A stretch of DNA of 64,000 bases from Alphaproteobacteria bacterium (GTDB lineage Bacteria > Pseudomonadota > Alphaproteobacteria > UBA828), in the NCBI GenBank assembly GCA_963667785.2, contig CAXXMU010000002.1, forward strand, positions 768,001 through 832,000. The letters are read 5' to 3'. Positions within the stretch are counted from its first letter, which is position 1. Each line of letters begins with the position of its first letter. Position numbers and translations under genes: made by a program. Below are positions 13,190-62,944 of this stretch, in pieces. The notes under the pieces are model-generated. The model was given only the letters and a program-made list of their open reading frames with translations, had not been told where the DNA came from and searched no databases.

Positions 13190-13435
13190 GACCCCAACCT
13201 CTCTTCGTCGTTAGCTATCTCCCGGATCGCACTACTGTAGCCCGGAACTCTCACAACTGTCATGGTCTGCGCGACGCGCCCCGCCCGGCGGGTGGGCAGG
13301 GTGCGGTGGTGGCTCCGACGAGCGCGCCGCTGCCTCACCTCGGCGAGACGAGGGGACGGAATCGCCGGAATCGGCGGGCGGGCTCGGGATCACACCTCGT
13401 GCTTCGCGGACTTGACCGCCGCGCGCCCGGACCCG

Positions 13436-13449
13436 ACATGCATACATGT
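13436..13449. promoter_or_regulatory. Candidate operator (ACATG-CATA-CATGT) in the divergent intergenic region
   Basis: Dyad with a TGCATACA core reminiscent of GntR-family sites, ~18 nt downstream of a TTGACC. Regulator unknown. Confidence 0.3.
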
Positions 13450-13721
13450 TCGGTGAACGACGACGGCAATCCGAGACCCCGCATGCGCCTGTTCGTGACG
13501 AGACGCACTGGCCGCACAACTCGCAGACCGAAACGCGGCATTGGGGCCCCGTTCTCAATTCGCTTTCTTGTATCGTCCGGTCGTGGCAGTCTTTTCATTT
13601 CGACCATCCTTGAGGTAGTCAATCCCGCACTGCTCACCGATCATGTGCGTCCCTTCGAATTGCGCGGCAGTTCCGGCGCTCGTACTGTGTCACGACTTCA
13701 GGTCCAAGGAGGCCACGGCTG

Positions 13722-15749
13722 ATGGCTGATTCGACCGAGGGTCTGGCATCCCAATCCCTGACGCTGCCCGAGGAGCTCATCCTGATGCTCCTCAACGACG
13801 AGACAGGCTACTTTCACCAGGTCCAGGGCTGGGAACTGAACTGCGCCGTCGTCGGCGCGGTACTGGCGGAACTGTCCCTCCTCGAGCGCATCGACACGGA
13901 CATGGAGTCGCTGCTCCTGGTGGACCGGACGGAAACGGGAAACCCGGCGCTTGATCCCATTCTGAAGGAAATCGCGGACGAGCCGGTTCGGCACAACGCC
14001 CAGTACTGGATCGAGCGACTCGCTGCCCATGCGGATTCGGTCATCGACCTGACTCTCGACCGCCTGGTCGATCTCAAGATCCTGAAGCACCACGACGGCG
14101 ATTTCTGGACCCTGGCCCCTACCAGCCGCTACTCCGACCAGTACGGCCACCTCGACGATGACACCCCGGATCAGTTCATCAAGACGCGCATCAGCGTCTA
14201 CATCTTCACCGAGGCGATCCCCGATCCGAGAGACATCATCATCATCTGCCTCGTCAATACCTGCGATGTGTTTCGCTTCATTTTCGACCTCGACGACGAG
14301 GCGGAGGAGCGCATCAAGTTCATCTGCAGAATGGACCTGATCGGCCGCTCCATCGCCGATGCGGTCGAAGCGAACATTGCCAGCCCGCTGCTTCGACACG
14401 CCGCCTTCACCAAGAAGATTCCGGTCGTTCCATGGCACAAGCTGCTGCTCAATCGACACATGCGCGATCGCAACATCCCCGGAATCTGCGCCGGGCTCGC
14501 GCAAGAGTACGGGCCGGTGTTTCAGATCCGTCCGCCGTTCGGCGAGACCGTGACCTTCCTGGCCGGGGCCGCCACCAACCGCTGGCTCCACCGCAACGGG
14601 CGGATGTACCTGAGATCCAAGGACTACTTCACCGATGTCGAGAAAGTCTACGGCGCCTCCGGGCTGATCCCCTCCCTCGACGGCGCCGATCACTTCCGGC
14701 AGCGCAAGGCCATGCAGCCGGGCTATTCTCGCGAGAGGCTGGAGGGAGAGCTGGACGCCCTCTACGGTCACATTCGCGCATTCATGGCGGATTGGAAGGT
14801 GGGCTCGACCCTGCCGGGCACCGCCACCTGCCGCCTCATGGTCAACGCTCAGATAGCGCCCGTCATTCTCAGCATCGAGGCACAGGACATCGTGGAGGAC
14901 CTGATCAAGTTCAAGGAGCGGGCGCTCACCACGCACGTCGCGAGGGTCCTGCCCAAATTCATGCTGCACACCCCGGGCATGAAGAAGCCTGCCAGGGCCA
15001 TCGAAGTGGCGGTGCAACGGATCCTGAACGTCCACACGCCCGCGCAGAGGTCCGGCTGCCCGCGCACCCTCGCGGACGACATGCTCAGCCTCCATGCCAG
15101 CGACCCGCAGTTCCTCCCCGAGTCGAACATGGCGTTCTATCTGTCGGCGCCCATGCTCGCCAGCATGTACCTCGGCGATGCGCTGGGCTTCGGCCTCTAC
15201 GCCATGGCGTCGCAGCCCGAACTCTACCGCCGGATTCGGGGCGAGGCCGATGCCCTGTTCGCCGACGGCGACCCGGACGGGGCGGCCTACACCAAGTCGG
15301 CCCTCGACGTCACGAACCGCTTCATCATGGAGTGCATGCGCATGTACCCCGTGGTGCCCGCGTCGATTCGCAACGTGATGAACTCGTGCGTCATCGAGGG
15401 CTACCAGCTTCCGGTGGGGGCACGCATCGTCATCGCCCAGACGGCCCCGCACTACATGAGCGACGTCTTCCCGGAGCCTTACAAGTTCGACATCGACCGC
15501 TACCTGCCGCCGCGCAACGAACACCGCAGCCCCGGATACGCGCCTTACGGGCTCGGCACTCACATGTGTCTCGGCTTCCGCTGGATGGAAATGCAGCTCA
15601 CCGTCAATCTGCTGATGATCGCGCGCTACTTCACGCTCGAGGTGTCGCCGAAGAACTACAAGCTCCGGATCAACCCGTTTCCGTCGATGTCTCCGAACAG
15701 GAAGCTGAAATTCCGCGTCGCCGAGCAGGCGCGCGAGCTGCCCGTCTAG
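13722..15749 (+). CDS. GPP34/GOLPH3-domain - cytochrome P450 fusion protein
   Basis: RBS AAGGAGG. The N-terminal ~215 aa (LTLPEELILMLLNDETG, GAVLAELSLLERI, TGNPALDPIL, LDRLVDLKIL) follow the GPP34 pattern. The C-terminal P450 has ExxR (ECMR), FDIDRY and heme motif YGLGTHMCLG. Confidence 0.85.
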   Translation: MADSTEGLASQSLTLPEELILMLLNDETGYFHQVQGWELNCAVVGAVLAELSLLERIDTDMESLLLVDRTETGNPALDPILKEIADEPVRHNAQYWIERLAAHADSVIDLTLDRLVDLKILKHHDGDFWTLAPTSRYSDQYGHLDDDTPDQFIKTRISVYIFTEAIPDPRDIIIICLVNTCDVFRFIFDLDDEAEERIKFICRMDLIGRSIADAVEANIASPLLRHAAFTKKIPVVPWHKLLLNRHMRDRNIPGICAGLAQEYGPVFQIRPPFGETVTFLAGAATNRWLHRNGRMYLRSKDYFTDVEKVYGASGLIPSLDGADHFRQRKAMQPGYSRERLEGELDALYGHIRAFMADWKVGSTLPGTATCRLMVNAQIAPVILSIEAQDIVEDLIKFKERALTTHVARVLPKFMLHTPGMKKPARAIEVAVQRILNVHTPAQRSGCPRTLADDMLSLHASDPQFLPESNMAFYLSAPMLASMYLGDALGFGLYAMASQPELYRRIRGEADALFADGDPDGAAYTKSALDVTNRFIMECMRMYPVVPASIRNVMNSCVIEGYQLPVGARIVIAQTAPHYMSDVFPEPYKFDIDRYLPPRNEHRSPGYAPYGLGTHMCLGFRWMEMQLTVNLLMIARYFTLEVSPKNYKLRINPFPSMSPNRKLKFRVAEQARELPV

Positions 15750-15768
15750 CCCGGATTTCTCGCCAGGC

Positions 15769-17127
15769 TCACGCCTTCCTGAAGCGCCGGCCGTACATCG
15801 TGCGGCCATAGAAGTTGAACCACTTGCGCGCCTCGGAATCCTCGAACGGATAGTCCGCCCCGAGCTGCCTCGCGGTGACGAGGCCGGTGACGAAGCAGGT
15901 CTCCTGGCTGTTGACCAGAGTGTGGGCGCCGCAGTGCCACGTCCGCCGCTTGCCCTGAACGAAGCGGAACAGGTGGATCAGGATGGCCACGTGGGGCACG
16001 TCGTGCACGATGTGCTGAAACCACCACCTCTTGATGATCTTGCCTTCGTCGATACGGCTGATCGGGTTGTAGGTCACCAGGCACGGCTTGTCCGACCGGT
16101 GCACCCAGGGCTGCTGATTGTGCATGATGTAGGTGATCTCGTAATTGTCGGGTCTCGCCCCGTACTGCTCGATGTGATTGCTCCGCGTCGCGAGCGGCTC
16201 GACCTCGTTGTCGGGAAGAACCGACGCGTCGGAATGGACGACCGTGTGGTTGTGCAGCTCGCTCTCGTAGCGGATCGAAGAGAGAAGGCTGCTCTCCATG
16301 AAGGTCGGCTTGTCCAGCATCATCAGCGTCTGATTGGCGTTGCAGGCGAAGACGACATCGTCGAACGTCTCGGTCCCTCCGTTCTCGTCCTCCACGACGA
16401 CTTCGCCTGCGCGCCGATACACTTTCCGCACCGGTCGCTCGAGGTAGATCCTGTCCCGAAAGGCGGCCGACAGCGCCTCGTAGATGCGCCGCGTGCCCCG
16501 GTCCCAGGTCTGCATCGGCGTTGCGGTCTCGATATCGAAGAACTCAAGATAGCGGGAGAACAGGGACGCAGGCATGTCGAACACGTTCGTCGCCATCAGG
16601 AAATTGACGAACATCGGCTTCAGTATCTTGTACCTGAAGTCTCCGGAGTACCTGCCCAGATTGAGGATCGCGCCCATGCTGACGTAGTTGTACGGGTTGA
16701 AGGCGTTGAGCAATCTGGACTTGCTCCGATTGAGGCGGCCGAACCAGCGCAGGCGCCGCAGCAGCCGCTGGAACTTCTCGATCTCCGGCTGCAATTGCCT
16801 CCTGATGTCGGAGTCGAAGTCGTGCGCGTAGACGCCGCCGCGATACTTCACGCTGTAGCTGAACCTGGTGTCGATCAGGTCGATACCGAGCTGCTGCATG
16901 AGCAGGACGATGTGGTGGTACACCGAGGGAATGCACGCGGTGACGGAAATATCGAACGGAATCGAGGTGCCGTCGTCCTGCGGCATGTCGGCCGTGATGG
17001 CATTGCCGCCGACCTGAGCCTGCGCCTCGTACAGGCGAAAGTCGAATCGATCGGGGTGGCGATCGAGCGCCCAGGCCACCCCCAGCCCGGAGACCCCTGC
17101 GCCGACTATGGCAACCCGTCTCGGCAT
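15769..17127 (-). CDS. FAD-dependent oxidoreductase (COG2907/amine-oxidase-like; distant relative of lipid-modifying flavoproteins)
   Basis: VAIVGAGVSGL dinucleotide fold, YEAQAQVGGNA, HSDASVLP, and QGKRRTWHCGAH...VTARQLGA C-terminus. Confidence 0.8.
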   Translation of the reverse strand: MPRRVAIVGAGVSGLGVAWALDRHPDRFDFRLYEAQAQVGGNAITADMPQDDGTSIPFDISVTACIPSVYHHIVLLMQQLGIDLIDTRFSYSVKYRGGVYAHDFDSDIRRQLQPEIEKFQRLLRRLRWFGRLNRSKSRLLNAFNPYNYVSMGAILNLGRYSGDFRYKILKPMFVNFLMATNVFDMPASLFSRYLEFFDIETATPMQTWDRGTRRIYEALSAAFRDRIYLERPVRKVYRRAGEVVVEDENGGTETFDDVVFACNANQTLMMLDKPTFMESSLLSSIRYESELHNHTVVHSDASVLPDNEVEPLATRSNHIEQYGARPDNYEITYIMHNQQPWVHRSDKPCLVTYNPISRIDEGKIIKRWWFQHIVHDVPHVAILIHLFRFVQGKRRTWHCGAHTLVNSQETCFVTGLVTARQLGADYPFEDSEARKWFNFYGRTMYGRRFRKA

Positions 17128-17197
17128 CGCCGCGGGGCTTCGGTCGGTGACCCGCCGGCCGGGAAGGCGGACCGGAGCGACTCGAAGCGGACCTGCC

Positions 17198-18019
17198 CTA
17201 GCGGATGCGCTTCAGGGCGGTCTTGGTGAAGTCGCCCACGTCGAGGTCGGTGCCGAACTCGTAGTCCAGCCAGTGCAGCTCGGTGCTCTTTCCCGTGAGA
17301 TGGTTCGTCATCGTGATCTTGCTGGCCCGCCAAAAGCGATCGAGATACTTCTGGTAGCCCTCCACGGCCATCGTCTTGAGGTGCGCGTCCCTGCGATCGT
17401 GGAACTGGATCTGCTGGACGCGAAGCTCCTCCTGGTCGAACCAGACGATCTGACGGGAGTAGCCCGACTTCCGGTCGAGCGGGACACGCTCCACCACGAC
17501 GCATTCGAGCTCGCCGCAGGGCTCGTCGCGCAGGTACGTGTACGCGTACTTCTCGATCTCGGAGGCGCCCAGGTCCTCGTAAGCGAACTCGCTGCCCATG
17601 AAGGAGCCGGACTGGTTCGAGGAACTGATGCGCTTGACCCGTTTCAGGGCGGGAAGATAGAGCCACTGCTCGTCCGGCTCGTCCTTGTGGGCATGGACGA
17701 GAAACGCCGTTCCCTTGACGTCGCGCGGCCGGTCGAACACGAACATGGTGCGATCGCCGTCCCCCTCGACCTCGATGACCTGCAGGCGAAGCTCGCGCCG
17801 GCTTTCCTGCCCGCGCTTGTTGCGCAGGACCATGTTGAGACTCGCGGTGAAATTGCCGAAACCCTTCTCGCGCTCGCGGGCGTCGGTCGCGATCCTGAGC
17901 CCGGCTTCCTCGGCGCTTTCGGCCGCCCGAGAGACCGGCGGCTCGACCGCCCAGGCCAGGACGGCGACGAAGAGCCCGAAGAGCGCAAGCAACAGGTAGG
18001 GGGAAGAGACGCGGATCAC
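17198..18019 (-). CDS. LolA-like outer-membrane lipoprotein-sorting family protein
   Basis: Signal peptide. PRDVKGTAFL, EQWLYLPALKRVKRISS, SFMGSEFAYEDL and final FTKTALKR are hallmark LolA_like/DUF1329 motifs. Confidence 0.88.
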   Translation of the reverse strand: MIRVSSPYLLLALFGLFVAVLAWAVEPPVSRAAESAEEAGLRIATDAREREKGFGNFTASLNMVLRNKRGQESRRELRLQVIEVEGDGDRTMFVFDRPRDVKGTAFLVHAHKDEPDEQWLYLPALKRVKRISSSNQSGSFMGSEFAYEDLGASEIEKYAYTYLRDEPCGELECVVVERVPLDRKSGYSRQIVWFDQEELRVQQIQFHDRRDAHLKTMAVEGYQKYLDRFWRASKITMTNHLTGKSTELHWLDYEFGTDLDVGDFTKTALKRIR

Positions 18020-18185
18020 CGTTTCCTCCTGTCGGTGGCCATCAGCGGAGCGGAAAAGGCGGAAAACCGGCGGCGGTATCCGGGCAGCGACTGGGCCGTG
18101 TCATCTCGTTCACCTTCGCCGGAACCTGCGGGCTCATGGTAGCACGATTCCCGCCCGGCGCATGGAGGGCCGGCGCCGGCCCGGA

Positions 18186-19451
18186 TCAGAAGTTGTAGTC
18201 CAGGTTCACCCCGATGTAGCTGTCCCGCCGCGCGACATAGGCGGCGTCTTCCTCGTCGATCCCCACATAGGCGGCGGCTTCCACGTGCAGGGACAGGCTG
18301 TCCGACAGGCGGCGCTTGAACTCGGCGCCAAGAACGCGGCTGCTGTTCTCGAGGGAGTTCAGCACGCTGCCGACGAACTCGGTGCTCTGCTCGTCGTTCA
18401 GCCCGAGACGCGCGACGAGGAGCAGGTCGTTCTCGAACGCGTTGGTCGCCCAGCGGCCTCTCCCGTCGTGGGTCCATTCGGCGATCAGGGTCAGTTCGGC
18501 GTCGAGTTCCCACGGGGAATAGATCGCGTACTCGCCGCCGAGCACGAAGGCCGCGTAGTCCTCTTCCTCGTAGTTGAGGGTCCGATCGAGTCGGGCGTTC
18601 TGCGCGCCGGCGCGGTGAATGGCTTCCAGCTTGAGAAGCCAGGGGCCGGTGGTGAGCTGGGTATCCAGGCCGAACTGCTGGATCTGCTCGTAGTACGGCG
18701 CCAGAACGAGCTCGCGGCCGACCAGCATCGGCAGCAGGGTGGGCTCGCGGCTGGTGCCGTCGAACGCGCTGAGCCCGACATCGAGCGGGCCGACGCTGCC
18801 GGTGTAACGGCCGGCGAGATCGACGTGCCACTCTTCATGCACTGATTCGTACGCGGTCAGAGAGTGGTCTACGACCAGCGCGGGACGCAGGCGGCCGTGG
18901 CGGCCCGGGTAGGTGCGCTTGCGGTGCCCGGTCAGCGCGAACAGCTCCAGCGCCCCCCAGTCTCCCGACAGGGTGACGTGGGCCATCGGCTGGCCCAGCT
19001 TGGTCTTCTCGTCCGGGTGCTCCACCAGGTCGGTCTGGTTGACGATATCGACCAGGGAACGCGATTCGACGACGCCCCAGAACACGCGATCGACGCCGAG
19101 CCGCAGCTCCCATTCGCCCTCGCCGATATCGCCGTAGAGGAGGAGGAAGGCCTCGCGGAGGTCGGCGTGGGTGCGCTCCGGATCCCCGGCGTCGAAGCGG
19201 TAGAAGGGCGTGACCGTGATGCTCCGGCCTTCGTCGTCCTCCATGTAGGCGGTGATCTCCGCGGCGAAGCCGCTCGAATGGGAGCGCTGGTCGGCGAACG
19301 CGGGAGTCTCGGGGTAGAGCCGGGTCTCCGGCGAATAGCGCCCGGAAAGCTCGAAGTAATCGATGAACCCGTCGTCGGCGTGTGCGCCGGTCGCGAGCAG
19401 CGGGACCAGCATGCCGAGCGCCGGGAGGAGGACGGGGAGGCGCGCGATCAT
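18186..19451 (-). CDS. Putative outer-membrane beta-barrel protein (DUF1302-like)
   Basis: Signal peptide ending AHA. DLREAF, VFWGVVES..LVDIVNQTD, amphipathic strands and C-terminal VNLDYNF (terminal Phe BAM signal). Confidence 0.75.
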   Translation of the reverse strand: MIARLPVLLPALGMLVPLLATGAHADDGFIDYFELSGRYSPETRLYPETPAFADQRSHSSGFAAEITAYMEDDEGRSITVTPFYRFDAGDPERTHADLREAFLLLYGDIGEGEWELRLGVDRVFWGVVESRSLVDIVNQTDLVEHPDEKTKLGQPMAHVTLSGDWGALELFALTGHRKRTYPGRHGRLRPALVVDHSLTAYESVHEEWHVDLAGRYTGSVGPLDVGLSAFDGTSREPTLLPMLVGRELVLAPYYEQIQQFGLDTQLTTGPWLLKLEAIHRAGAQNARLDRTLNYEEEDYAAFVLGGEYAIYSPWELDAELTLIAEWTHDGRGRWATNAFENDLLLVARLGLNDEQSTEFVGSVLNSLENSSRVLGAEFKRRLSDSLSLHVEAAAYVGIDEEDAAYVARRDSYIGVNLDYNF

Positions 19452-19506
19452 CCCGCCCTCCTCACCTCCGGCACGGATGGAGAACCGGGGCACGCGCCCG
19501 CGTTGT

Positions 19507-21867
19507 TCAACTGCTCCCCTCGCTCGCCACCTTGGTCGCTCCGCCCGTCCCCTTTCTTCTATCGAGAATCATGAGCAACGGCGGGAGGAACAGGAAGTCC
19601 GCCAGGAGAGCGATGATGACCGTCGTTCCCGCCAGCAGACCGAGCGCCTGGTTGTTCGCCATCCCCGATGCGCCGAACACCATGAAACCCAGCGCGAACA
19701 CGACGGTCGTCGCCAGCAGCGCCTTGCCGACCGTGCCGAAGGCGGACTGGACGGACTCCTCCGGCGACTGCCCGCTCTTCCGGCCTCTCAGATACTTGGT
19801 CATGAAGTGAATCGTGTCGTCCACGATGATGCCGAACGCGATGGCGGTGACGACCGACGCCGAGACTCCGACCTGTCCCACCGCATACCCCCACAGCCCC
19901 ATCGCCATGGCGGCCGGAACGAAATTGGGTATCAGGCTGATCAGGCCGAAGCGCACGCTCCTGAAGATGAAGATCAGCAGCAACGAGACGATACCCATCG
20001 CCGTGATGGTGCCAATCAACATCTTCTCGATGTTTCTGTTGATCGAGTGCGCCCCGACGATCGTCATCCCGGCGGCGCCGGTTTCCAGACCGGGAGCATT
20101 CTGGCGCAGCCAGTCGCGCGCGCGCTCGTCGAGCTCCAGCTTCTGGTTGACGGAGAGCGCCTTCAGGACGACCGTCAGGCGGGTCGCCGACCGTTCGACG
20201 TCGATCAGGTTGTTGAGGTCCAGGCCCACCGGCAGAGAGAATTCGTAAAGCAGCAGGTATTGGGCGGCGAGCTCGGTGTCGTCCGGAATGCGGTAGAACT
20301 CCGGATCGTCGCCATTCAGATTCTTGTTCAGGCGCTTCACGATGTCGGTGACGCCGAAGACATGAGCGACTTCGGGCTGCGCCCGGTACCACTCCGCGAA
20401 CGCGTCGACCTGCTTCAGATAGCCGACATCCGTGATGCCGCCCTCTTGCCCGGACTCGAGCGAGTACTCGAACGGCTCCAGGCCGGAGAAATTGTCGCTC
20501 ACGAAATCCGTGGCTCGCCGGAACTCGTAGCTTTCGCTGAGAAGCTCGAGGTGATTGTCGTCGAGTTCGATGCGCGAGATGCCGGCAACCAGCGCCACGA
20601 CGAGGACGCCGAAGGCAGCCAGCATGACAATGCGGCGGGACACGACGAAGCGCCCGAAACGCTCGAAGAAGCGGTCGAAATAATCGGTCTTCCCGGCCTT
20701 GGCGGGCCGGACGCGCAGGGGCATGAGAGACAGGAAAGCCGGCAGGAGCGTCACCGAAAAGACGAAGGCGGACAGCGAGCCGAAGGCGACGATATTGCCC
20801 ATGACCCGAAACGGCGGCATCTCGGAGAAGTTCAGGCTGAGGAATCCGATTGCCGTCGTGATCGACGTCAGGAATACGGGCCACACGTTGAGCTTCAGAG
20901 AGTGGATCGCCGCCTGTCTGCGGTCCATTCCCTGGCGCAGGCCCGCCAGCATTCCCTCTATGATGTGCACGCAATGTGCGACCGTGATCGCCATCAGGAC
21001 GAACAGCGCCGCCCCGCTCTCGCCGTAGAACTTCATGCCGGCCCAGCCGCCGAAGCCCAACGCGGATATGACGATCGCAATGATCATCAGGATGATCGCG
21101 ACGATTCCCCAGACCGTGCGCAGCATGAGCAGGGCGACGAGCAGCATGACCCCGAGCGCGATGGGGCCGAGCAGGCCCATGTCCTCGTTGAGCGCGTCGC
21201 GAACCGCGCGATTGAGCAGGACTTCGCCGGTCAGGTAATACCCGTGGGTCGGATGCTTCGTTCGCGCCTCGGCGGTGGCGGCGTTGAGGTAGTCGACGAC
21301 GTCCAGCTTGGCCTGCTCCCGCTCCTCGTCGGGGATCGCCGCGCTGACGATCAGCCCGGCAACGCGACCGTCCCGGGAAATCAGACGCCCGGCAATTTCC
21401 TCGGTACCGAGCGCGATACTCTCGATCCGCTCTATGTCGTCGTCAGTCAGCGCAGCGGCGTCGTCGATAAGCGGATCGACGATCAGCTCGTCCTCGAGGC
21501 CTTCGCTATGCGAGTAATTCGTCAGTGAATCGACGCGGATGACGTAAGGCGTGCGCCACAGCGCCTCGGTCAACTCTTCTATGGCAGCAAGCGATTCCTG
21601 CGTGAAGACGGTACCGCTCTTCGGCGCTACGGCAACCAGCATGGTGTCGGAGATGGCGTAGGTGCCTTCCAGTTGCTCGAGCGCGACAAGATTCGGGTCG
21701 TCTTTACTGAAATGATTGCGAGAATCGACGTCGACGTTGACGAGGTTCTGGGCACCTGCGGCGAGCAACAGCACGACGATCACGGAGAGCAAAATGGTCA
21801 GCCACCGGCGACGCATAATGTGCGCTATGGAGGAGTCCAAATCGATGCCGGAGGGGAGGTACTTCAT
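19507..21867 (-). CDS. MMPL/RND-family transporter (COG1033-like)
   Basis: 786 aa with two repeats of 1 TM + periplasmic domain + 5 TM. PVFLTSITTAIGFLSL, ISLIPNFVP and GIIVDDTIHF. Confidence 0.9.
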   Translation of the reverse strand: MKYLPSGIDLDSSIAHIMRRRWLTILLSVIVVLLLAAGAQNLVNVDVDSRNHFSKDDPNLVALEQLEGTYAISDTMLVAVAPKSGTVFTQESLAAIEELTEALWRTPYVIRVDSLTNYSHSEGLEDELIVDPLIDDAAALTDDDIERIESIALGTEEIAGRLISRDGRVAGLIVSAAIPDEEREQAKLDVVDYLNAATAEARTKHPTHGYYLTGEVLLNRAVRDALNEDMGLLGPIALGVMLLVALLMLRTVWGIVAIILMIIAIVISALGFGGWAGMKFYGESGAALFVLMAITVAHCVHIIEGMLAGLRQGMDRRQAAIHSLKLNVWPVFLTSITTAIGFLSLNFSEMPPFRVMGNIVAFGSLSAFVFSVTLLPAFLSLMPLRVRPAKAGKTDYFDRFFERFGRFVVSRRIVMLAAFGVLVVALVAGISRIELDDNHLELLSESYEFRRATDFVSDNFSGLEPFEYSLESGQEGGITDVGYLKQVDAFAEWYRAQPEVAHVFGVTDIVKRLNKNLNGDDPEFYRIPDDTELAAQYLLLYEFSLPVGLDLNNLIDVERSATRLTVVLKALSVNQKLELDERARDWLRQNAPGLETGAAGMTIVGAHSINRNIEKMLIGTITAMGIVSLLLIFIFRSVRFGLISLIPNFVPAAMAMGLWGYAVGQVGVSASVVTAIAFGIIVDDTIHFMTKYLRGRKSGQSPEESVQSAFGTVGKALLATTVVFALGFMVFGASGMANNQALGLLAGTTVIIALLADFLFLPPLLMILDRRKGTGGATKVASEGSS

Positions 21868-22194
21868 GAATGGTGCGTCGTCAGATGTCAGTCGGGGAGT
21901 GGCTCTGACACGGTTCCCGCTCGCCGCTCAATGCAGCCGGAAGCCGTGTGGCGACGTCCAGAATCGGGAGCATTTCCATGGCAGTATCACAGCCTCCCGA
22001 TCCCTTGTCCATCGCTCTCTCGGGCGAACCCGCCCGCCTTGCGGCGGCTGCGCGGGCGCGCGACCGCGATCCACGCACGCTCGCCGCGGTTGGCGACGTG
22101 TTGCGCGCTCACTACATAATCCGGTATGGCGTGGACGGGGTTCGATGCCCCGCGACCATATGCCGCCCTGCACTCCGGGCCGACGGTCCTTGCC

Positions 22195-23280
22195 ATGCAG
22201 ATGCATCTTCATCGACAGAGTGTCCCGCAAGACGTGGAAGAGAATCTGATCGCGGGCGGTGACGATCCCTCCCTCTTCCCGTTTCCCGAAGGGTGGTACT
22301 TCGTTGCCGACCGCCGCTCGTTAGCGAAGGGCGAACTGATCGAAAAGCAGTGGATGGGGCAGGACATCGTCGTCTGGTGCAACGACGAGGGAGCCGTCTG
22401 CGTCGCCCGGTCGCTCTGCCCTCACCTGGGATCCTCCCTGGGCCCCGCCGCCGGCGGGCGCGTGCGCGACGGCCGACTGGTCTGTCCCTTTCACGGCTTC
22501 ACCTACGACGCGACCGGCGCCTGCGTCGCGACTCCCTATGCGCCGCCCCCCAAGGGCACGAGACTGAGCGTCTTCCCCACGCGGGAGATTCTCGGCCTCG
22601 TCTTCGCCTGGTGGGGCATCGACGGACGCCCGCCGCAATGGGACCTGCCCGAAGAGCCGGCGGCAGGAGACGAGTGGAGCGACCTTGAAATCGAGACCCT
22701 CCGGTTTCCTGGCCACCCTCAGGAGACGACGGAGAACTCGGTGGACCTGGCCCACCTGCGCTACGTGCACGGCTACGACAACGTGAAACCCGTCGGATCG
22801 GCGACGGTGGAGGGCGCACGTCTCGTGAGCTGCTTCGACTTCAGGCGTCGCACGCGCATCGCCGGAGTCATCGACCTCGTCTTCGACGTGTCGGCCGCCA
22901 CCTACGTCCACGGGCTGGGCTACTCGTTCGTCGACATCCGTGAGCACACCGTCGGCATGGAGACCCGCCTGTGGGTTCTGACCACGCCGGTCGACGGCAC
23001 GCTCGTCGACCTCGTTCTGGTCTCGCAGGCTCGCATGCTGCGAAAGCCCAAGCGTTTCGTCGCCGGCCTCGGATTCCTGCCGGTGAAGGTGCGCACCGGG
23101 ATCATGAACAGGTTTCTGCTTTCCATACAGAAGCAGGACGTTCTCCAGGACGTCGTGATCTGGGGGAAGAAGAGCTACCGGCCCCATCCAAGCCTCTGCG
23201 GCTCCGACGGTCCCATCGGCAGGTACCGGCGCTACTGCAGGCAGTTCTATCCGCGTGGCGACGATGGCGGACGCAGCTAG
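22195..23280 (+). CDS. Rieske non-heme iron oxygenase, KshA/Neverland (steroid 9-alpha-hydroxylase/cholesterol 7-desaturase)-like
   Basis: FPEGWY, Rieske CPHLG...CPFHGF, mononuclear Fe motif ENSVDLAHLRYVH, and C-terminal QDVVIW.KK.Y...P.L...DGPI..YRRYCRQFY. The start is uncertain (22126-22234). Confidence 0.85.
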   Translation: MQMHLHRQSVPQDVEENLIAGGDDPSLFPFPEGWYFVADRRSLAKGELIEKQWMGQDIVVWCNDEGAVCVARSLCPHLGSSLGPAAGGRVRDGRLVCPFHGFTYDATGACVATPYAPPPKGTRLSVFPTREILGLVFAWWGIDGRPPQWDLPEEPAAGDEWSDLEIETLRFPGHPQETTENSVDLAHLRYVHGYDNVKPVGSATVEGARLVSCFDFRRRTRIAGVIDLVFDVSAATYVHGLGYSFVDIREHTVGMETRLWVLTTPVDGTLVDLVLVSQARMLRKPKRFVAGLGFLPVKVRTGIMNRFLLSIQKQDVLQDVVIWGKKSYRPHPSLCGSDGPIGRYRRYCRQFYPRGDDGGRS

Positions 23281-23342
23281 GGTCGAGGCCCGCGAGGCCG
23301 CGGCGCTCGATGCGTCGCCCGCGTGCCTGCGGTGAGCGCTCC

Positions 23343-24221
23343 ATGAACGTTTCGACCGGCATCCCGATCCTCCCCCGCCTCGCCCCGCTGATGGCGGACT
23401 ACGACGGCTGCATCCTCGACGTATGGGGGGTGATGCATCAGGGAGGGCCGGCCTATCCCGAGGCGCTCGATTGCCTCCGCCATCTGCGCGCGGCGGGCAA
23501 GCGGGTGGTGTTCGTCTCCAACGCGCCCAGGCTCGCGGCCCAGGTCGAGTCCGTTCTCGGCGGGAAGGGGATCGAAGCGGCGCTGTACGATGCCGTCGTC
23601 GCCTCCGGCGACGCCGCGCGTCAGGCTCTCGCCGACCGCACACGCCCTCCGTTCGACGGACTCGGGCGCCGCTACCGTCTGCTCGGGCCGCCCGGCTCCG
23701 ACGACGTGCTCGACGGTCTCGGCTACGCTGCCGCCGACATCGACGGGGCGGACTTCCTGCTCGGCATCGGTCTCGACGATGGGCGCGAGACGGTCGAGGA
23801 TCACGAGCCGATCCTGCAGGCGGCCGTTGCCCGCGATCTCCCCATGATCTGCGTCAATCCCGACCTGCTGGTGATCCGGCTGGGCGTTCAGGAGCCCTGC
23901 GCCGGCGCGCTCGCCGCCCGCTACGAGGCGCTCGGCGGCAGCGTGCGCTATTTCGGCAAGCCTCATCCCGAAGTCTACGACCTGGCGCTGGCGGCGCTCG
24001 GTCTCGCGCCCCGGCGCGTGCTCGCCGTCGGCGACGGGCTCGCCACCGATATCGCCGGCGCCGCCGCTGCGGGCCTCGCTTCGCTCCTGGTCACCGGCGG
24101 CCTGCTCGCCGACTCGCTCGGCCTCGCCCCCGGCGAGCCGCCGGGCGCCCAGGCCCTGGAGGATGCCTGCCGGGCTGCCGGCGTCAGGCCTAGCGCCGCC
24201 CTCGCGGCTTTCGTCTGGTAA
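23343..24221 (+). CDS. HAD-superfamily hydrolase, subfamily IIA (TIGR01459-like)
   Basis: ILDVWGVMH, SNAPR, MICVNPD, FGKPHP and AVGDGLATDI. Confidence 0.9.
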   Translation: MNVSTGIPILPRLAPLMADYDGCILDVWGVMHQGGPAYPEALDCLRHLRAAGKRVVFVSNAPRLAAQVESVLGGKGIEAALYDAVVASGDAARQALADRTRPPFDGLGRRYRLLGPPGSDDVLDGLGYAAADIDGADFLLGIGLDDGRETVEDHEPILQAAVARDLPMICVNPDLLVIRLGVQEPCAGALAARYEALGGSVRYFGKPHPEVYDLALAALGLAPRRVLAVGDGLATDIAGAAAAGLASLLVTGGLLADSLGLAPGEPPGAQALEDACRAAGVRPSAALAAFVW

Positions 24222-41930: not shown

Positions 41931-42001
41931 ACGCCGATCGCGCCGGGAGTATATTGCCGCGCGCATAATCCCGCGGGCGGGCGCGACTTTACTGCCGCGC
42001 G

Positions 42002-42036
42002 CACGGCCCTGCGGGCGTGCGCGACGCAGGGCCGTG
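42002..42036. terminator. Hairpin between convergent genes (likely bidirectional terminator)
   Basis: 12-bp perfect stem CACGGCCCTGCG/CGCAGGGCCGTG. Confidence 0.55.
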
Positions 42037-42056
42037 AACCTGTTGAGAAAAGCGGG

Positions 42057-42395
42057 CTACTCGCCGAGTGAGCTCAGCGCGCCTTCGCGGGTGTCGTGGA
42101 TCGGGATGATCTTGTCGAAGCCGCTGATCTCGAACACCTCCTTGACCGGACCGGAGAGCGAGCAGAGCGCGAACTTGGCGTCACGCTTCCACAGCGTCTT
42201 GGCGGTCATCAGCACGGCGCGGAGCCCCGCACTGCTGATGTACGAGAGATTCTCGAAGTCCATGATCACGGCGCTGTCGCCGTCTTCGATCTTGGTTCGG
42301 ACCGCTTCCTCGAAGTCGCGGGCATTGGTGCTGTCGATGCGTCCGTCTACCCGGGCGGTCAGGGCGCTCCCGTCGCGCTCGATCGTCAACTCCAT
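42057..42395 (-). CDS. STAS-domain anti-sigma factor antagonist
   Basis: GRIDSTNA, DFENLSYISSAGLR (phosphorylatable Ser) and VFEISGF; RBS GGAGG. Confidence 0.92.
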   Translation of the reverse strand: MELTIERDGSALTARVDGRIDSTNARDFEEAVRTKIEDGDSAVIMDFENLSYISSAGLRAVLMTAKTLWKRDAKFALCSLSGPVKEVFEISGFDKIIPIHDTREGALSSLGE

Positions 42396-42521
42396 TGCCT
42401 CCGCCTCCCGTCACAGTGCCGCCGGGGATCATACAGCGTGTTCGGAGCTTGCCACACCCCAATTTGCGTGCAGATCAGATGGCGCGGGGGAGCAGCCCGG
42501 CGGCACCCCTCCCGGCCCGCG

Positions 42522-43949
42522 TCAATCGTCGGTCTCAGGCATCAGCACGAACTCGGGATACGACTCGATGCCGAGCTCCGCCGCATCCTGCCCGAGCTCC
42601 TCGTGAGCGGGCGGGATCCGCGCGCCCAGGAGCTTGTCGATGATGTACCAAGACAGGAACGACGTGCCGAAGACGAAAGCGCCGATGGCGAGAATGCCGA
42701 TGATCTGCACGACCGGGTCTCCGCCGGCGGCGATGCAGACCGCAAGCGTTCCCCAGACACCGGCGAAGAGGTGCGCCGGAACCGCGCCGACCACGTCGTC
42801 CACCTTGAGCATCTCGAGCAGTTTGACGCCGAGCACGACGATCGCGCCGCCGATCGCGCCGATGATAACGGCGAAGTAGTGATCGACGATGTCGGGGCCG
42901 GCGGTGATCGCCACCAGGCCGGCGATGGCGCCGTTCAGGCTGGTGACAAGATCGACGCGCCCCATGATCGGCCGCGACAGCGAGATCGCCGCCAGCACGC
43001 CGGCCGCCGCGGCGAGGTTGGTGTTGGCCAGGATGTTGCTCAGCGCCACGGCGTCGATGGCGCCGCTAAGCGCGAGCTGCGAGCCGCCGTTGAAGCCGAA
43101 CCAGCCGAGCCAGAGGATGAACACGCCGAGCGTCACCGCCGGCACGTTGGAGGGCGCCGTCGTCTTGACGCTGCCGTCTTCGCGGAACTTGCCCTTGCGC
43201 GCGCCGACGATCATGGCGCCGGCCAGCGCGGCCCAGCCGCCGGTCGAATGCACGATCGTGGAGCCGGCAAAGTCCTGGAAGCCCATCTGGGAGAGCCAGC
43301 CGCCGCCCCAGGTCCAGGAGCCGATCACCGGATAGATGAAGGCGGTCAGCAGCGCGATGAAGACGAAGAACGACCAGAGCTTCACCCGCTCGGCCAGCGT
43401 GCCCGAGACGATGGAGGCGGTGGTCGCGACGAACACCATCTGGAAGAACCAGTCGGACATGGTGGAGTAGCCGTTCTCCACCACCGCCTCGGTGACGGAC
43501 TCGTCGCCGCCAAGCAGGGCTATTTCGTCGCCTGTCGTCGAGTAGGGATGGGCGAAGGAACCGACCCAGCTCACCACGTCGACGTACATGAGATTGTAGC
43601 CGACCAGGTAGTAGGTGAGCCCGGCGATGGAATAGAGGCCGATGTTCTTGAGGCAGATGACCGATGCGTTCTTGGTTCGCACCGAGCCGGCCTCCAGCAT
43701 GGTGAAGCCGGCGCACATCCACATGACCAGCGCGCCCCAGACGAGGAACGAGAAGCTGTTGAGGATGAACTGCGTCTCCGCCGAGACCGCGGCATAGGCC
43801 TGCGGCACCACGAACACCAGCGACAGCGTGAGCACGACGACCAGGGCCGCGATGCGCCAGCCCGATCTGCCGGCGGAGCGGAAGAGCCCCAGCCCCAGAC
43901 GGGAGGAGGCAGACGACGTGGCATGCGTAACCCTGAATTCGTCCCGCAT
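42522..43949 (-). CDS. amtB: Ammonium transporter (Amt family)
   Basis: MCAGFTMLEAG, FFQMVF, DFAGSTIVH, LWLGWFGFNGGS and DDVVGAVPAH. Start taken at ATG 43949 (RBS GGGAG). Confidence 0.94.
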   Translation of the reverse strand: MRDEFRVTHATSSASSRLGLGLFRSAGRSGWRIAALVVVLTLSLVFVVPQAYAAVSAETQFILNSFSFLVWGALVMWMCAGFTMLEAGSVRTKNASVICLKNIGLYSIAGLTYYLVGYNLMYVDVVSWVGSFAHPYSTTGDEIALLGGDESVTEAVVENGYSTMSDWFFQMVFVATTASIVSGTLAERVKLWSFFVFIALLTAFIYPVIGSWTWGGGWLSQMGFQDFAGSTIVHSTGGWAALAGAMIVGARKGKFREDGSVKTTAPSNVPAVTLGVFILWLGWFGFNGGSQLALSGAIDAVALSNILANTNLAAAAGVLAAISLSRPIMGRVDLVTSLNGAIAGLVAITAGPDIVDHYFAVIIGAIGGAIVVLGVKLLEMLKVDDVVGAVPAHLFAGVWGTLAVCIAAGGDPVVQIIGILAIGAFVFGTSFLSWYIIDKLLGARIPPAHEELGQDAAELGIESYPEFVLMPETDD

Positions 43950-43983
43950 AGTCGACTCCCGGTCAGCGTTCACGGCTTCGTGA

Positions 43984-44013
43984 AAGATGCCCTATATGCA
44001 GAAGTACTGTCAA
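43984..44013 (-). promoter_or_regulatory. Candidate sigma70 promoter for amt in an AT-rich spacer
   Basis: Minus strand TTGACA-N18-CATCTT in the most AT-rich intergenic patch nearby. Confidence 0.4.
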
Positions 44014-59988: not shown

Positions 59989-60057
59989 CGGGCCATTCTG
60001 CATGCAGAAAGGGGGCGCGCGGCAGCCGGGCGCGACCCCGTCTGGTCAGAACGCGCG

Positions 60058-61131
<1,074 letters not shown>

Positions 61132-61133
61132 GG

Positions 61134-61994
61134 TCAGCCCTTCACCGCGCCCATGGTCATGCCCTTGATGAAGTAGCGCTGGAAGAACAGGAACACCACG
61201 AGAGTCGGCAGGCTCGCGATCAGCGACAGCGACCCCTGCACCCCCCAGGCCACCGAGTACTGCCCCTGGAGGTTCACGATTCCCAGCATGATGGTCCGCT
61301 TCTCGTCGGACTGGGTGAAGATGAGCGGCCATAGGAAGTCGTTCCAGATCCAGGTGAACTGGAGAGTCGCCAGCACCGCCAGCGCCGGCAGGCTCAGCGG
61401 CAGCGCCACCCGGGTCAGCACCTGCCACTCGTTGGCACCCTCCAGGATGGCCGCCTCGCGCAGGGCGTTCGGGACGGTGGCGAAGAAGTTGCGCATCAAG
61501 AGCGTGCAGATGGGGATGCCCATCGCGGTGTGGATGATGATGATGGGATAGAGCGTGTCGATCAGGTCCACGGCGTTGAAGAGCCGGAACAGCGGGATCA
61601 GGATCACCTGCGGCGGGAAGAACATGCCGGAGACGATGACGAGAAAGAGCAGGTTGCTGCCCCGGAAGGGCAGCTTGGCGAACACGTAGCCGGCCAGCGA
61701 GCCCAGCGCGATCGAGGCCACCGTCGCGGGCGCGGTGACGATGAACGTGTTGGCGAAGTAGCGGTGCACGGCCGGATTGGCGAGCACCTCGGCGTAGTTG
61801 CCCCAGAACAGCTCGGACGGAATCGTCCAGAGCTGGCCGAGCGCGATGTCGCGGGTGGTCTTGATCGAGGACAGCAGCACGCCGGCGGTCGGCGCCAGGA
61901 ACAGCACCGCCAGAACCGCGAGCGAGACGAAGATAACCGCCGGCCACGGGTTGAAGCGCCTGCCCGAAGCGGGGGCGATTGCTACGTCAGCCAT
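61134..61994 (-). CDS. Carbohydrate ABC transporter permease (MalG-like)
   Basis: EAA loop LREAAILEGA, WNDFLWPL and FQRYFIKG. Confidence 0.93.
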   Translation of the reverse strand: MADVAIAPASGRRFNPWPAVIFVSLAVLAVLFLAPTAGVLLSSIKTTRDIALGQLWTIPSELFWGNYAEVLANPAVHRYFANTFIVTAPATVASIALGSLAGYVFAKLPFRGSNLLFLVIVSGMFFPPQVILIPLFRLFNAVDLIDTLYPIIIIHTAMGIPICTLLMRNFFATVPNALREAAILEGANEWQVLTRVALPLSLPALAVLATLQFTWIWNDFLWPLIFTQSDEKRTIMLGIVNLQGQYSVAWGVQGSLSLIASLPTLVVFLFFQRYFIKGMTMGAVKG

Positions 61995-62868
61995 GGATCT
62001 CGTCGACCTTGCGCAACTGGCGGAAGTAGAGGCGGATGATGGTCAGCGCGATCAGGAACAGGACCACCGAGATGGCGCTGCCGTAGCCCATCAGGTACTT
62101 CTTGAACGACTCGTTGTACATGTGCATGGCCAGCGTGTCGGAGCTGTTGAAGGGCCCGCCGCCGGTCATGGTGTAGAGGATGTCGAACCCCTTGAGCGAG
62201 TTGATGACGTTGAGCGCGATCACCACCACGGTGGCGGGCGTGAGCAGGGGGATGACCACCAGGCGGATGCGCTGAAGCGTCCTGGCACCCTCGATCTCGC
62301 ACACCTCCAGCAGCTCCTCGGGGATGGTGGTGAGCCCGGCCAGGAAGATCACCATCGAGAGCCCGGTCTGCTGCCACGACCAGGCGAGGATCACCGACCA
62401 GAGCGCGCTATCCGGCTTCGCCAGCCACGCGTAGGTGAAGTTCTCGCCGGTCACCGCCTCCACAACGGTGTTCAGCAGCCCCCAGTCCGGCTGGTAGATC
62501 CACACCCAGATCTGGCCGACCACCACGGCCGAGAGGCAGATCGGCAGGTAGAAGATCGACTTGAACACCGGGCCGCCGGGGATGCGGCTGTCGATCAGCA
62601 GCGCAAGCCCGAGCCCGAGCGCGGTCGGCACGACGATCGCGGCGACGATCCAGAGCGCCGTGTTGATCGCGGCGTTGAGGAACAGCTTGTCGGTGTGGAT
62701 CTTGAGGAAGTTGTCGAAGCCGACGTAGTCGTAGTCGGGATTGAAGCCGTTCCAGTTCGTGAAGCTGTAGTAGAAGGAGCTCGCGAGCGGCCAGATCACG
62801 AACGCCGCGAACACCGCAAGCGGCAGCGCCAGCAGGATCACCCGCCAGAAACGGTTCTCCCGTTCCAT
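61987..62868 (-). CDS. Carbohydrate ABC transporter permease (MalF-like)
   Basis: YVGFDNF, FLAGLTTIPEELLE and MTGGGP. Confidence 0.93.
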   Translation of the reverse strand: MERENRFWRVILLALPLAVFAAFVIWPLASSFYYSFTNWNGFNPDYDYVGFDNFLKIHTDKLFLNAAINTALWIVAAIVVPTALGLGLALLIDSRIPGGPVFKSIFYLPICLSAVVVGQIWVWIYQPDWGLLNTVVEAVTGENFTYAWLAKPDSALWSVILAWSWQQTGLSMVIFLAGLTTIPEELLEVCEIEGARTLQRIRLVVIPLLTPATVVVIALNVINSLKGFDILYTMTGGGPFNSSDTLAMHMYNESFKKYLMGYGSAISVVLFLIALTIIRLYFRQLRKVDEIHG

Positions 62869-62895
62869 CGGTCACCGCTCATGCCGGAAAGTGAA

Positions 62896-62927
62896 CGGGC
62901 CGCCGGGATATACCGCCCGGCGGCCCG
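62896..62927 (-). terminator. Stem-loop after the substrate-binding protein gene
   Basis: 12-bp perfect stem CGGGCCGCCGGG/CCCGGCGGCCCG between the SBP and permease genes. Confidence 0.55.
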
Positions 62928-62944
62928 CCCGCACGAGACCGCGC

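Follow-up and report, generated by a model that had tools for sequence, protein, structure and literature searches.

A horizontally spread GPP34-cytochrome P450 gene module of sponge-dwelling bacteria with a proposed role in tailoring and moving sterol-like lipids

Here we analyse a 64,000-nucleotide stretch of an alphaproteobacterial genome (contig CAXXMU010000002.1; called the window below, always at this full length) and, within it, a six-gene island that includes a gene fusing a GPP34 domain to a cytochrome P450. The island is a true insertion, the catalytic motifs of its enzymes are intact, and relatives of the fusion recur across bacterial phyla, often beside sterol methyltransferase genes and with a transporter that suits the envelope of the carrier. 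The explanation that we favour, and consider probable if well short of certain, is that the island is a copy of a horizontally spread module of sponge-dwelling bacteria that oxidatively tailors sterols or sterol-like triterpenoids and moves them across the cell envelope.

The original prediction, made from the letters of the window, had proposed a trans-envelope conduit coupled to three redox enzymes that act on a sterol-like lipid, possibly in a sponge or another host. The linkage to sterol genes and the sponge origin of matching sequencing runs speak for the lipid and for the setting, but the conduit proved to be a generic cassette that says little about its own cargo.

The inserted island

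Frame-aware calling of open reading frames (ORFs) followed by Pfam searches gave six genes at 13722..23280, four on the minus strand and two on the plus strand, in agreement with the prediction. The island, its genes and the two domains of the fusion are as follows (aa, amino acids).

13193..23393, no strand: inserted island, borders approximate (within about 60 bases), from alignment to congeners G059, G054 and G003
13722..15749, plus: GPP34-cytochrome P450 fusion (GPP34_L), 675 aa, Pfam GPP34 and p450
13764-14372, plus: GPP34 domain of the fusion, residues 15-217, Pfam 1.3e-29
14460-15689, plus: P450 domain of the fusion, residues 247-656, Pfam 3.6e-33
15769..17127, minus: amine-oxidase-fold flavoprotein binding flavin adenine dinucleotide (FAD), 452 aa, Pfam Amino_oxidase and NAD_binding_8
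17198..18019, minus: LolA_like periplasmic protein with a signal peptide, 273 aa, PF17131 6.7e-60
18186..19493, minus: outer-membrane beta-barrel, 435 aa, no Pfam family, from AlphaFold2 model and Foldseek
19507..21867, minus: RND-superfamily MMPL/HAE3-like inner-membrane transporter, 786 aa, Pfam MMPL 5.4e-37
22126..23280, plus: KshA-type Rieske non-heme iron oxygenase, Pfam Rieske and KshA_C

Three congeners (G059, G054 and G003) are collinear with the window from 11000 to 13192/13205 and again from 23336/23393 to 26000, and the spacing between the two flank blocks is 298 bp in G059, 1.1 kb in G054 and 1.78 kb in G003, compared with about 10.2 kb in the window. The flanks adjoin in all three, with LivK 93-98% and the sulfur transporter 83% identical to their counterparts in the window. 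Given that the site is empty in three congeners, the island must be an insertion that spans approximately 13193-23393. The claim that these genes interrupt an ordinary neighbourhood therefore holds, as the congeners run across the site with 0.3-1.8 kb in place of the island. Both flanks consist of housekeeping genes that are ordinary for an alphaproteobacterium-like genome, with IleRS, MutL and a Liv-type ABC importer upstream and a HAD hydrolase, the sulfur transporter, CtaA, IspG and GlnE downstream. Congener G003 carries a copy of all six genes elsewhere on its chromosome.

A search of the borders for tRNA genes, integrases and direct or inverted repeats of at least 10 bases found none. Between LivK and HAD, G003 (G003:C1:2318978-2321731) holds 1.78 kb and G054 (G054:C4:343980-345975) 1.1 kb of other sequence, and the site may be a recurrent insertion point.

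The G+C content of the window is about 71%, with a dip to 62-67% at roughly 8-23 kb. In the six island genes, the G+C content at third codon positions (GC3) is 0.83-0.89; with the genome median at 0.918, they rank at the 9th to 27th percentile among 1805 long ORFs. The predicted excess of A/T at third positions is real, but it is modest. Further G+C dips (0.65-0.68) occur at window positions 60000-64000 and 42000-44000; since GC3 is high there (0.91-0.97), amino-acid composition rather than foreign origin is probably the cause. A nitrile hydratase alpha subunit gene at 34-642 is unrelated to the island.

Related loci and their sterol-gene neighbourhood

We scanned one genome per prokaryotic species and counted partner genes by tblastn within 10 kb of the fusion. 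The fusion was found at 78 distinct loci under about 13 taxon labels, which were taken from record titles, at 56-77% identity to the window protein (44% at locus L078). The labels comprise Gammaproteobacteria, Alphaproteobacteria, Nitrospirota, Chloroflexota/Dehalococcoidia, Acidimicrobiia, Gemmatimonadota, Latescibacterota, Thermodesulfobacteriota/Dadabacteria, Bacteriovoracales, Rhodothermaceae and the candidate taxa Poriferihabitaceae, Poriferisodalis and Aldehydirespirator. The partner counts are as follows.

Fusion (tblastn): 77/78 loci, the missing one being a 1962-bp fragment
Sterol methyltransferase (SMT; Sterol_MT_C domain): 45/78 loci
Rieske oxygenase: 35/78 loci
Flavoprotein: 32/78 loci
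MMPL protein with sterol-sensing domain (SSD-MMPL): 27/78 loci
LolA-like protein: 19/78 loci
Barrel: 19/78 loci
HAE3-like RND: 14/78 loci
ERG4/24 sterol reductase: 13/78 loci
Window flank genes (LivK, HAD, Sulf_transp): 0/78 loci

At least one partner is present at 63/78 loci, and an SMT or ERG4/24 gene at 46/78. ORF clustering combined with Pfam likewise returned the Sterol_MT_C methyltransferase, the Rieske oxygenase, the flavoprotein, the SSD-MMPL protein and the ERG4/ERG24 reductase as the commonest neighbours.

The sterol methyltransferases deserve particular attention. Sterol_MT_C genes are present in 37/46 carrier genomes and in 0/14 control genomes, and in the 24 carriers with a single chromosome, 18 of the 34 Sterol_MT_C genes fall within the 22-kb locus where chance alone would place 0.22, counts whose independence and significance are overstated because the carrier loci are related to one another. 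The linkage recurs under the labels Acidimicrobiia, Chloroflexota, Gemmatimonadota, Latescibacterota, Thermodesulfobacteriota, Nitrospirota and Aldehydirespirator. Locus L003, of Nitrospirota, has the order fusion, flavoprotein, one further gene, squalene epoxidase-oxidosqualene cyclase fusion and CYP51-like P450. At locus L008, a squalene synthase lies within the cluster.

The transporter found with the enzymes follows the envelope. The HAE3 RND, LolA-like and barrel genes occur only under the labels Alphaproteobacteria, Gammaproteobacteria, Poriferihabitaceae, Bacteriovoracales and Thermodesulfobacteriota/Dadabacteria, which are diderm. The SSD-MMPL gene is restricted to Chloroflexota, Acidimicrobiia, 'Ca. 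Aldehydirespirator' and one unclassified label, where it has neither a periplasmic nor an outer-membrane partner; these MMPL neighbours, of 830 residues, match sterol-sensing/Patched domains at 2e-14. Chloroflexota and Acidimicrobiia lack a classical outer membrane. At two further diderm loci, Gemmatimonadota L038 and Latescibacterota L026, an AcrB-type pump stands beside the enzymes. The transport step is therefore a constant partner of the enzymes, and the hardware is swapped to suit the envelope.

Two loci have other neighbours worth recording. At L042:4078-6571, in a Chloroflexota symbiont, genes for a DarT-like single-stranded DNA ADP-ribosyltransferase and an ADP-ribosylglycohydrolase, which form a toxin-antitoxin-type pair, and for a UvrD-like helicase adjoin the module. 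At L017:4-3183, in a Dehalococcoidia symbiont, a 1059-residue eukaryote-like protein with fibronectin-III/Ig-like domains is encoded about 7 kb from the module.

Horizontal spread and habitat

Sequence comparison indicates that the module has spread horizontally among bacteria. We searched 16 carrier genomes for the IleRS of the window, one of them without a match; the protein is 90% identical to that of congener G003 and 28-48% identical to those of 14 other carriers, while in the same genomes the fusion is 56-76% and the flavoprotein 70-88% identical to the window. IleRS is an imperfect control for transfer; two types of it exist, which may explain the identities near 30%. In a FastTree phylogeny of 74 fusion proteins, the window copy joins one alphaproteobacterial and one gammaproteobacterial copy (support 97), and this group nests in a 10-row clade with Nitrospirota, Poriferihabitaceae, gammaproteobacterial and alphaproteobacterial labels (support 100). 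The taxon labels need 18 changes on this tree, where the minimum would be 12, a difference that fits transfer followed by mostly vertical descent within lineages.

Distribution among close relatives is uneven. In the genus of the window, 9/20 other genomes hold the full fusion at an identity of at least 52%, and 1/16 genomes from other genera of the family gave any fusion match. Near-identical island DNA was found in sequencing runs labelled sponge metagenome, with 0.20-0.46 of the sampled words present, in three studies. No RNA run was listed among those holding the island.

A sterol pathway in the same genome

A sterol biosynthesis cluster lies at C2:356-366 kb, on the same contig and about 420 kb upstream of the island. 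Its order is 3beta-HSD/epimerase-like gene, SdmA-like Rieske gene, ERG24, CYP51-like P450, squalene epoxidase-cyclase fusion and SMT, the last on the opposite strand. SdmA/SdmB-like genes belong to the sterol set of this genome; the SdmA-like gene (C2:357500-358516) scores 398 bits against the SdmA model, for which the cut-off is 600. The squalene epoxidase-oxidosqualene cyclase fusion (C2:361004-364473; L090:11004-14474) has 1156 residues. Nine other carrier genomes, of several phyla, have the same fusion at 67-91% identity, and two further carriers have a cyclase alone or an epoxidase and a cyclase that are separate but adjacent. A second ERG4/24 gene is found at C1:509 kb.

The prediction had stressed that no cyclase is encoded in the window. 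The island indeed has none, but the genome encodes the epoxidase-cyclase fusion together with the SdmA/SdmB-like, ERG24, CYP51-like and SMT genes of the cluster. With its own cyclase and early sterol genes, the bacterium need not depend on sterol from a host. Given that a cyclase search returned a single match, the epoxidase-cyclase fusion, in this 98%-complete genome, hopanoids are an unlikely cargo. When the cyclase fusion was used as the query in 46 other carrier genomes, 11/46 had a cyclase at 67-91% identity, 9/46 had one at 27-37% only, and none was found with this query in 26/46. The many carriers in which no cyclase was found would therefore have to work on foreign sterol.

A second SMT gene (C6:314046-315041), 63% identical to a copy from a Dehalococcoidia symbiont, has a GC3 of 0.76, among the 30 lowest of the 1805 ORFs, and adjoins genes for an ArsR regulator and an AHSA1/SRPBCC-fold protein. 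This SMT gene was probably acquired by transfer as well.

The redox enzymes

The fusion P450 and the Rieske oxygenase look, from their conserved residues, like working enzymes. The AlphaFold2 model of the fusion has a predicted local distance difference test score (pLDDT) of 81.7 and a predicted template modelling score (pTM) of 0.74. The heme ligand Cys616, in the F/YxxGxxxCxG loop, and the residues E537 and R540 of the ExxR motif in helix K are invariant in all 74 aligned fusion proteins, so that both the heme-thiolate site and ExxR are in place. The I-helix is unusual. Across the family it reads A-S-(M/V)-Y-(L/V)-G-D, with Tyr483 in 74/74 proteins and Thr at the usual alcohol position in 0/74; the window sequence ASMYLG aligns to AGHETT in CYP184A1, AGHETL in CYP120 and AGHHTS in CYP51. 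The acid-alcohol pair (A/G-G-x-D/E-T), which is typical but not obligatory in PF00067, is thus not kept. P450s that lack the I-helix Thr include peroxide-rearranging enzymes and enzymes in which the substrate helps to activate oxygen.

We tried to place the P450 domain in a subfamily, and neither sequence nor fold separated its CYP51-, CYP120-, CYP184- and BM3-like neighbours: in sequence and fold searches, bacterial CYP51 and CYP120 score about equal to CYP184A1 and BM3. A stand-alone P450 at C5:178415-179632, 33% identical to the P450 part of the fusion, is present in nearly all genomes of the genus. We rejected this gene, at C5:178 kb, as a part of the system, given that it sits among unrelated genes.

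The flavoprotein, 70-88% identical across phyla at its 32 related loci, has LkcE as its only full-length solved relative (E 2e-23), and a protein-atlas search returned only generic clusters of 'FAD-dependent oxidoreductase'. No paralogue of it was found in its own genome.

The true start of the Rieske oxygenase is probably 22195, which gives 361 aa, because the called database protein has this length. Its KshA_C domain matches at 1.4e-24 (Pfam), and its best solved relative is KshA (phmmer 8.5e-26). A large-database search gave 2547 relatives at E <= 1e-10. The best 120 of these, all at least 62% identical, are close sponge-type proteins, with no distant characterised relative among them, and the CxH...CxxH Rieske and DxxHx4H iron motifs are present in 120/120. 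Neverland and DAF-36 are cholesterol 7-desaturases, and the island enzyme may be related to Neverland. A second Rieske gene, at C6:839 kb, is of the Ring_hydroxyl_A type and was rejected as a part of the system.

The transport triad

Three island genes encode what would be a route from the inner to the outer membrane. The LolA_like protein matches PF17131 over its full length (202.3 bits, profile positions 3-184 of 184), is closely related to the structural-genomics entry PDB 3bk5 (1.2e-81) and has a weak match to DUF1329 (9e-8). The barrel protein has a signal peptide and the C-terminal end ...DYNF, and it may begin instead at Met 15 (nt 19451). Modelling, which had been proposed as a check, supports the assignment: the AlphaFold2 model built with 15 relatives is all-beta with about 20 strands (pLDDT 67, pTM 0.64), and a Foldseek search places it closest to porins and the alginate channel AlgE (prob 1.0, template modelling score about 0.5). 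The transporter matches MMPL (PF03176, 127.9 bits against a cut-off of 20.5), and its best NCBIfam match is TIGR00921 HAE3 (159.6 bits, below the cut-off of 351.9).

Structure prediction supports binding of the LolA-like protein to the barrel. The predicted complex scores 0.74, compared with 0.00 for the best control; in a benchmark, this score was reached by 116/157 solved complexes and by 2/215 mismatched pairs. The prediction runs agree in at least 92% of the contacts, the pLDDT of the partner is at least 85, and the predicted contacts draw on residues from most barrel strands.

The same genome has a second triad at C6:328257-338714 (L111:6257-16714), composed of an RND protein with a sterol-sensing match, a LolA_like protein and a barrel with a weak match to DUF1302 (4.7e-6). 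The GC3 of this region is 0.67-0.84. This second triad may serve to export a modified peptide or a halogenated product. The RND/LolA-like/barrel triad is hence a generic, widespread cassette and not sterol-specific, and for this reason the cargo of the island triad can be read only from its context.

Proposed function and alternatives

From this context we infer what the substrate is, which reactions take place, in which direction transport runs and what GPP34 does. Early sterols would be made by the bacterium's own cyclase fusion, CYP51-like protein, ERG24, SdmA/B-like proteins, two SMTs and two ERG4/24 proteins. In the island, the GPP34 domain would probably serve the P450 as a membrane- or lipid-docking module that replaces a transmembrane anchor, the flavoprotein would probably be a desaturase or oxidase, and the KshA/Neverland-type Rieske oxygenase would probably hydroxylate or desaturate a ring or side chain. 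In diderm carriers, the RND pump, the LolA-like protein and the barrel would hand the lipid from one membrane to the other, with the LolA-like protein docked onto the barrel. In this bacterium, the island most likely finishes the cell's own sterols and places them in the outer membrane, and in carriers in which no cyclase was found, the module would act on sterol from the host.

A number of observations weigh against this proposal. None of the SMT, ERG4/24 and cyclase genes of this genome lies inside the island, and the counts of sterol-gene linkage are inflated by the relatedness noted above. The top P450 neighbours, CYP184A1 (solved with oleic acid) and then the fatty-acid hydroxylase BM3, are not sterol-specific, and the domain shares only 25% identity, over 155 residues, with the CYP51-like protein of the genome; we rejected it as a paralogue of that protein, and the distance itself counts against a sterol substrate. 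The alignment of the Rieske protein with KshA is limited to residues 32-215, its score against the SdmA model NF052579 is 37.5 bits against a cut-off of 600, and the island shows no ferredoxin or reductase partner. The sterol-sensing match of the RND protein is weak (25.1 bits against a cut-off of 22.3), and the scores against the models of known lipid transporters stay far below their cut-offs: 36.4-37.6 bits for BstA (NF045600, cut-off 1400) and 108.5 and 51.8 bits for HpnN (TIGR03480 and NF052374, cut-offs 751.85 and 1100). The barrel family occurs in 14/150 other alphaproteobacterial families sampled, and the second triad adjoins YcaO, a tryptophan halogenase and two ABC exporters, of which one bears a C39 peptidase domain. 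Finally, some symbiont SMTs were described as failing to methylate the two sterols assayed (PMC10070321).

Several of these observations would fit a hydrophobic substrate other than a sterol, such as phospholipid acyl chains, long-chain sponge fatty acids, carotenoid- or polyene-type pigments or sponge terpenoids. Oxidation or desaturation would be the task of the enzymes, and export or detoxification that of the triad. We regard this as unlikely. In its favour are the fatty-acid-binding P450 neighbours and the unrelated contexts of the triad, to which can be added that the Amino_oxidase fold includes carotenoid desaturases and, as described in PMC7380195, UfaD, a desaturase of methyl-branched acyl chains; that the closest characterised transporter of this architecture, AmeABCD, is described as handling monoterpenes (PMC6394551); and that SMT belongs to the same superfamily as the cyclopropane fatty acid synthases (Pfam CMAS match). 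However, the neighbouring methyltransferases carry the Sterol_MT_C domain found in none of the control genomes, the direct neighbours in several phyla include ERG4/24, the epoxidase-cyclase fusion and a CYP51-like P450, and the MMPL partners in Chloroflexota, Acidimicrobiia and 'Ca. Aldehydirespirator' match sterol-sensing/Patched domains. In addition, no DUF1365 (UfaO-type) gene was found in the genome of the window.

A second alternative is catabolism of host steroids, in which the P450 would oxidise the side chain in the manner of CYP125, ring B would be cleaved by flavoprotein and Rieske oxygenase like KstD and KshA, and the transporter would import the steroid. This is improbable in our opinion. 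The Rieske protein has the KshA_C domain and is, among solved structures, closest to KshA, and in the 26/46 carriers in which the query found no cyclase, and the 9 with only a distant one, the sterol would be foreign; genes for acyl-CoA dehydrogenase, 3-hydroxyacyl-CoA dehydrogenase, CoA-transferase and aldehyde dehydrogenase also occur near some loci. These beta-oxidation genes, however, are confined to particular lineages, and the conserved partners SMT and ERG4/24 are of anabolic type, to which Nitrospirota adds a biosynthetic cyclase cluster. In the island and the conserved neighbour families we found no meta-cleavage or hydrolase genes, no KshB-type reductase and no other ring-cleavage genes. 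The flavoprotein, with LkcE as its only full-length solved relative, is of the amine-oxidase fold, and KstD belongs to a different FAD family.

The GPP34 domain

Turning to the domain for which the fusion is named, the Pfam match to GPP34 covers profile positions 1-200 of 201, in agreement with homology to GPP34 and a GPP34 fold. A profile of the domain reaches human GOLPH3 (3kn1/9qpq) with an E-value of 2e-6, and a single-sequence search against solved structures gave no match. The pocket of human GOLPH3 for phosphatidylinositol 4-phosphate (PI4P) is described as formed by W81, R90, R171 and R174 (PMC2806290). These residues align to V34, V44, E/D105 and I108 of the window protein, with high posterior confidence at R90 and moderate confidence (5-6) at the other three, and the pocket residues are not kept; W37 lies three residues from the W81-aligned V34, across a one-residue gap. 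No signal peptide is seen in the sequence at the N-terminus of the fusion. The genome also has five short GPP34-only genes (C2:869107, C2:343812, C2:544548, C5:353322 and C6:477010), which share 36-42% identity with the GPP34 part of the fusion.

With its two domains and sponge association, the fusion is the published GPP34_L, described as reported only in sponge symbionts by Ferreira et al. (2025, Microbiome 13:4, PMC11706023), who also describe GPP34-Rieske fusions in two genomes and propose that GPP34_L is secreted, binds host PI4P and blocks phagocytosis or phagosome maturation. If so, the neighbours would be unrelated to it. Its restriction to sponge symbionts, its homology to GOLPH3 and the further short GPP34 genes, which fit a family expanded in symbiosis, speak for such an effector, but we think it very improbable that this is the function here, as the PI4P-pocket residues are not kept at the alignment confidence just given (with a Trp three residues away), the N-terminus has no signal peptide, a P450 whose heme and ExxR residues are invariant requires heme and, generally, electrons supplied inside the cell, and the gene lies amid membrane and cytoplasmic lipid enzymes and transporters at 63/78 loci. 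Given that the word 'sterol' occurs nowhere in PMC11706023, the linkage to sterol genes was not weighed there, and our literature searches found no paper linking GPP34 with sterols. Overall, the host-phagocytosis reading fits poorly.

Possible implications

If sterol tailoring is indeed the function, the mobile module would add three oxidative steps and a transport route to the sterol capability of bacteria inside sponges. GPP34_L, so far read as a host-evasion factor, would gain a metabolic and testable function; sterol trafficking across the bacterial envelope would have a second, non-homologous case beside BstABC; and the widespread, uncharacterised RND/LolA-like/barrel cassette would have a concrete candidate cargo.

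A wider reading can be formulated, which we put forward tentatively and consider unlikely. Sponge symbionts of many phyla might share a portable sterol-remodelling kit, carriers without a cyclase might import host sterol through the RND conduit in an NPC1-like direction, GPP34 might be a lipid- or membrane-docking module for oxygenases and not a host effector, and the Tyr-Leu P450 might carry out a sterol peroxide rearrangement or a substrate-assisted oxidation. Steranes with unusual side chains serve as the oldest chemical evidence for animals, and the bacterial SMTs of sponge symbionts are described as having complicated how steranes are read (PMC10070321). If the wider reading were true, part of the 'sponge-specific' sterol diversity, and of the derived fossil steranes, would have been made or finished by bacteria.

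Comparison with known systems

The island shares features with several described systems. With GPP34_L as described in PMC11706023, it shares the two-domain architecture and the sponge habitat, the window protein being 44-77% identical to 77 such proteins, and several short GPP34 genes occur in the genus of the window, in line with that paper. The published role is that of a secreted PI4P binder that modulates phagocytosis, whereas here we find a conserved neighbourhood of sterol-type enzymes and transporters and, in the fusion itself, a PI4P pocket whose residues are not kept and an atypical P450 I-helix. Similarly, the Rieske protein resembles KshA, the 3-ketosteroid 9alpha-hydroxylase, in its Rieske and KshA_C domains and in its intact cluster and iron ligands. 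It differs in the limited extent of the match and in having neither a KshB-type reductase nor ring-cleavage genes nearby; the context of KshA is catabolic, and that of the island one of tailoring.

The sdmAB-bstABC genes of Methylococcus capsulatus, as described by Zhai et al. (2024, eLife, PMC10942540), offer a parallel in arrangement, as they place sterol-modifying enzymes, among them a Rieske oxygenase, beside RND, periplasmic and outer-membrane-associated proteins, and BstABC is thought to carry sterols to the outer membrane. In contrast, the island RND scores about 36 bits against the BstA cut-off of 1400, and the island Rieske protein is not SdmA. A BstA model search of the whole genome returned the island RND as the only match, so that the genome has no BstA orthologue. 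BstB is described as periplasmic and BstC as outer-membrane-associated, and the island has a LolA-like protein and a beta-barrel in these places; for these two, the systems are set apart by description only.

In architecture, AmeABCD of Castellaniella defragrans is closer. As described in PMC6394551, it has an HAE3-type RND protein of 787 aa (786 aa in the island), a LolA-superfamily periplasmic protein and an outer-membrane barrel, all inside a pathway island for a hydrophobic isoprenoid. It differs in having four parts, including the COG4447 protein AmeC, and the island has no COG4447-type gene. AmeA is described as a 605-aa DUF1302 protein and AmeB as a 451-aa DUF1329 protein, compared with the 435-aa island barrel, which has no Pfam or DUF1302 match, and the 273-aa LolA_like protein. 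The described substrate is a monoterpene, and the role efflux and tolerance. By analogy, the island triad would work like the AmeABCD family, as a three-part variant of the four-part system.

The sterol clusters and SMTs of sponge symbionts described in PMC9531527 and by Brown et al. (2023, PMC10070321) share with the island the habitat and a horizontal spread across about ten phyla, and SMT is the commonest neighbour of the fusion elsewhere. The gene order described there (reductase-like, hypothetical, which corresponds to the SdmA-like gene, ERG24, CYP51, cyclase, and SMT on the opposite strand) is matched by the genome of the window. In contrast, the island itself holds none of the CSG genes, and its oxidoreductases and triad are not named in these papers as far as their running text goes: 'Rieske' and 'P450' occur 0 times in PMC10070321, and in PMC9531527 'Rieske' occurs 0 times and 'P450' once, the supplementary gene tables, which may list such neighbours, lying outside this count. 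The original prediction knew of no characterised system with this gene set. The GPP34_L fusion and the sterol clusters and SMTs were in fact already published, and the gene set is to that extent not new. To these systems, the window adds proof of insertion from an empty site, a carrier with a complete early sterol pathway, a transporter of LolA-like/barrel/HAE3 form for which a LolA-barrel complex is predicted, and a swap of transporters that matches the envelope.

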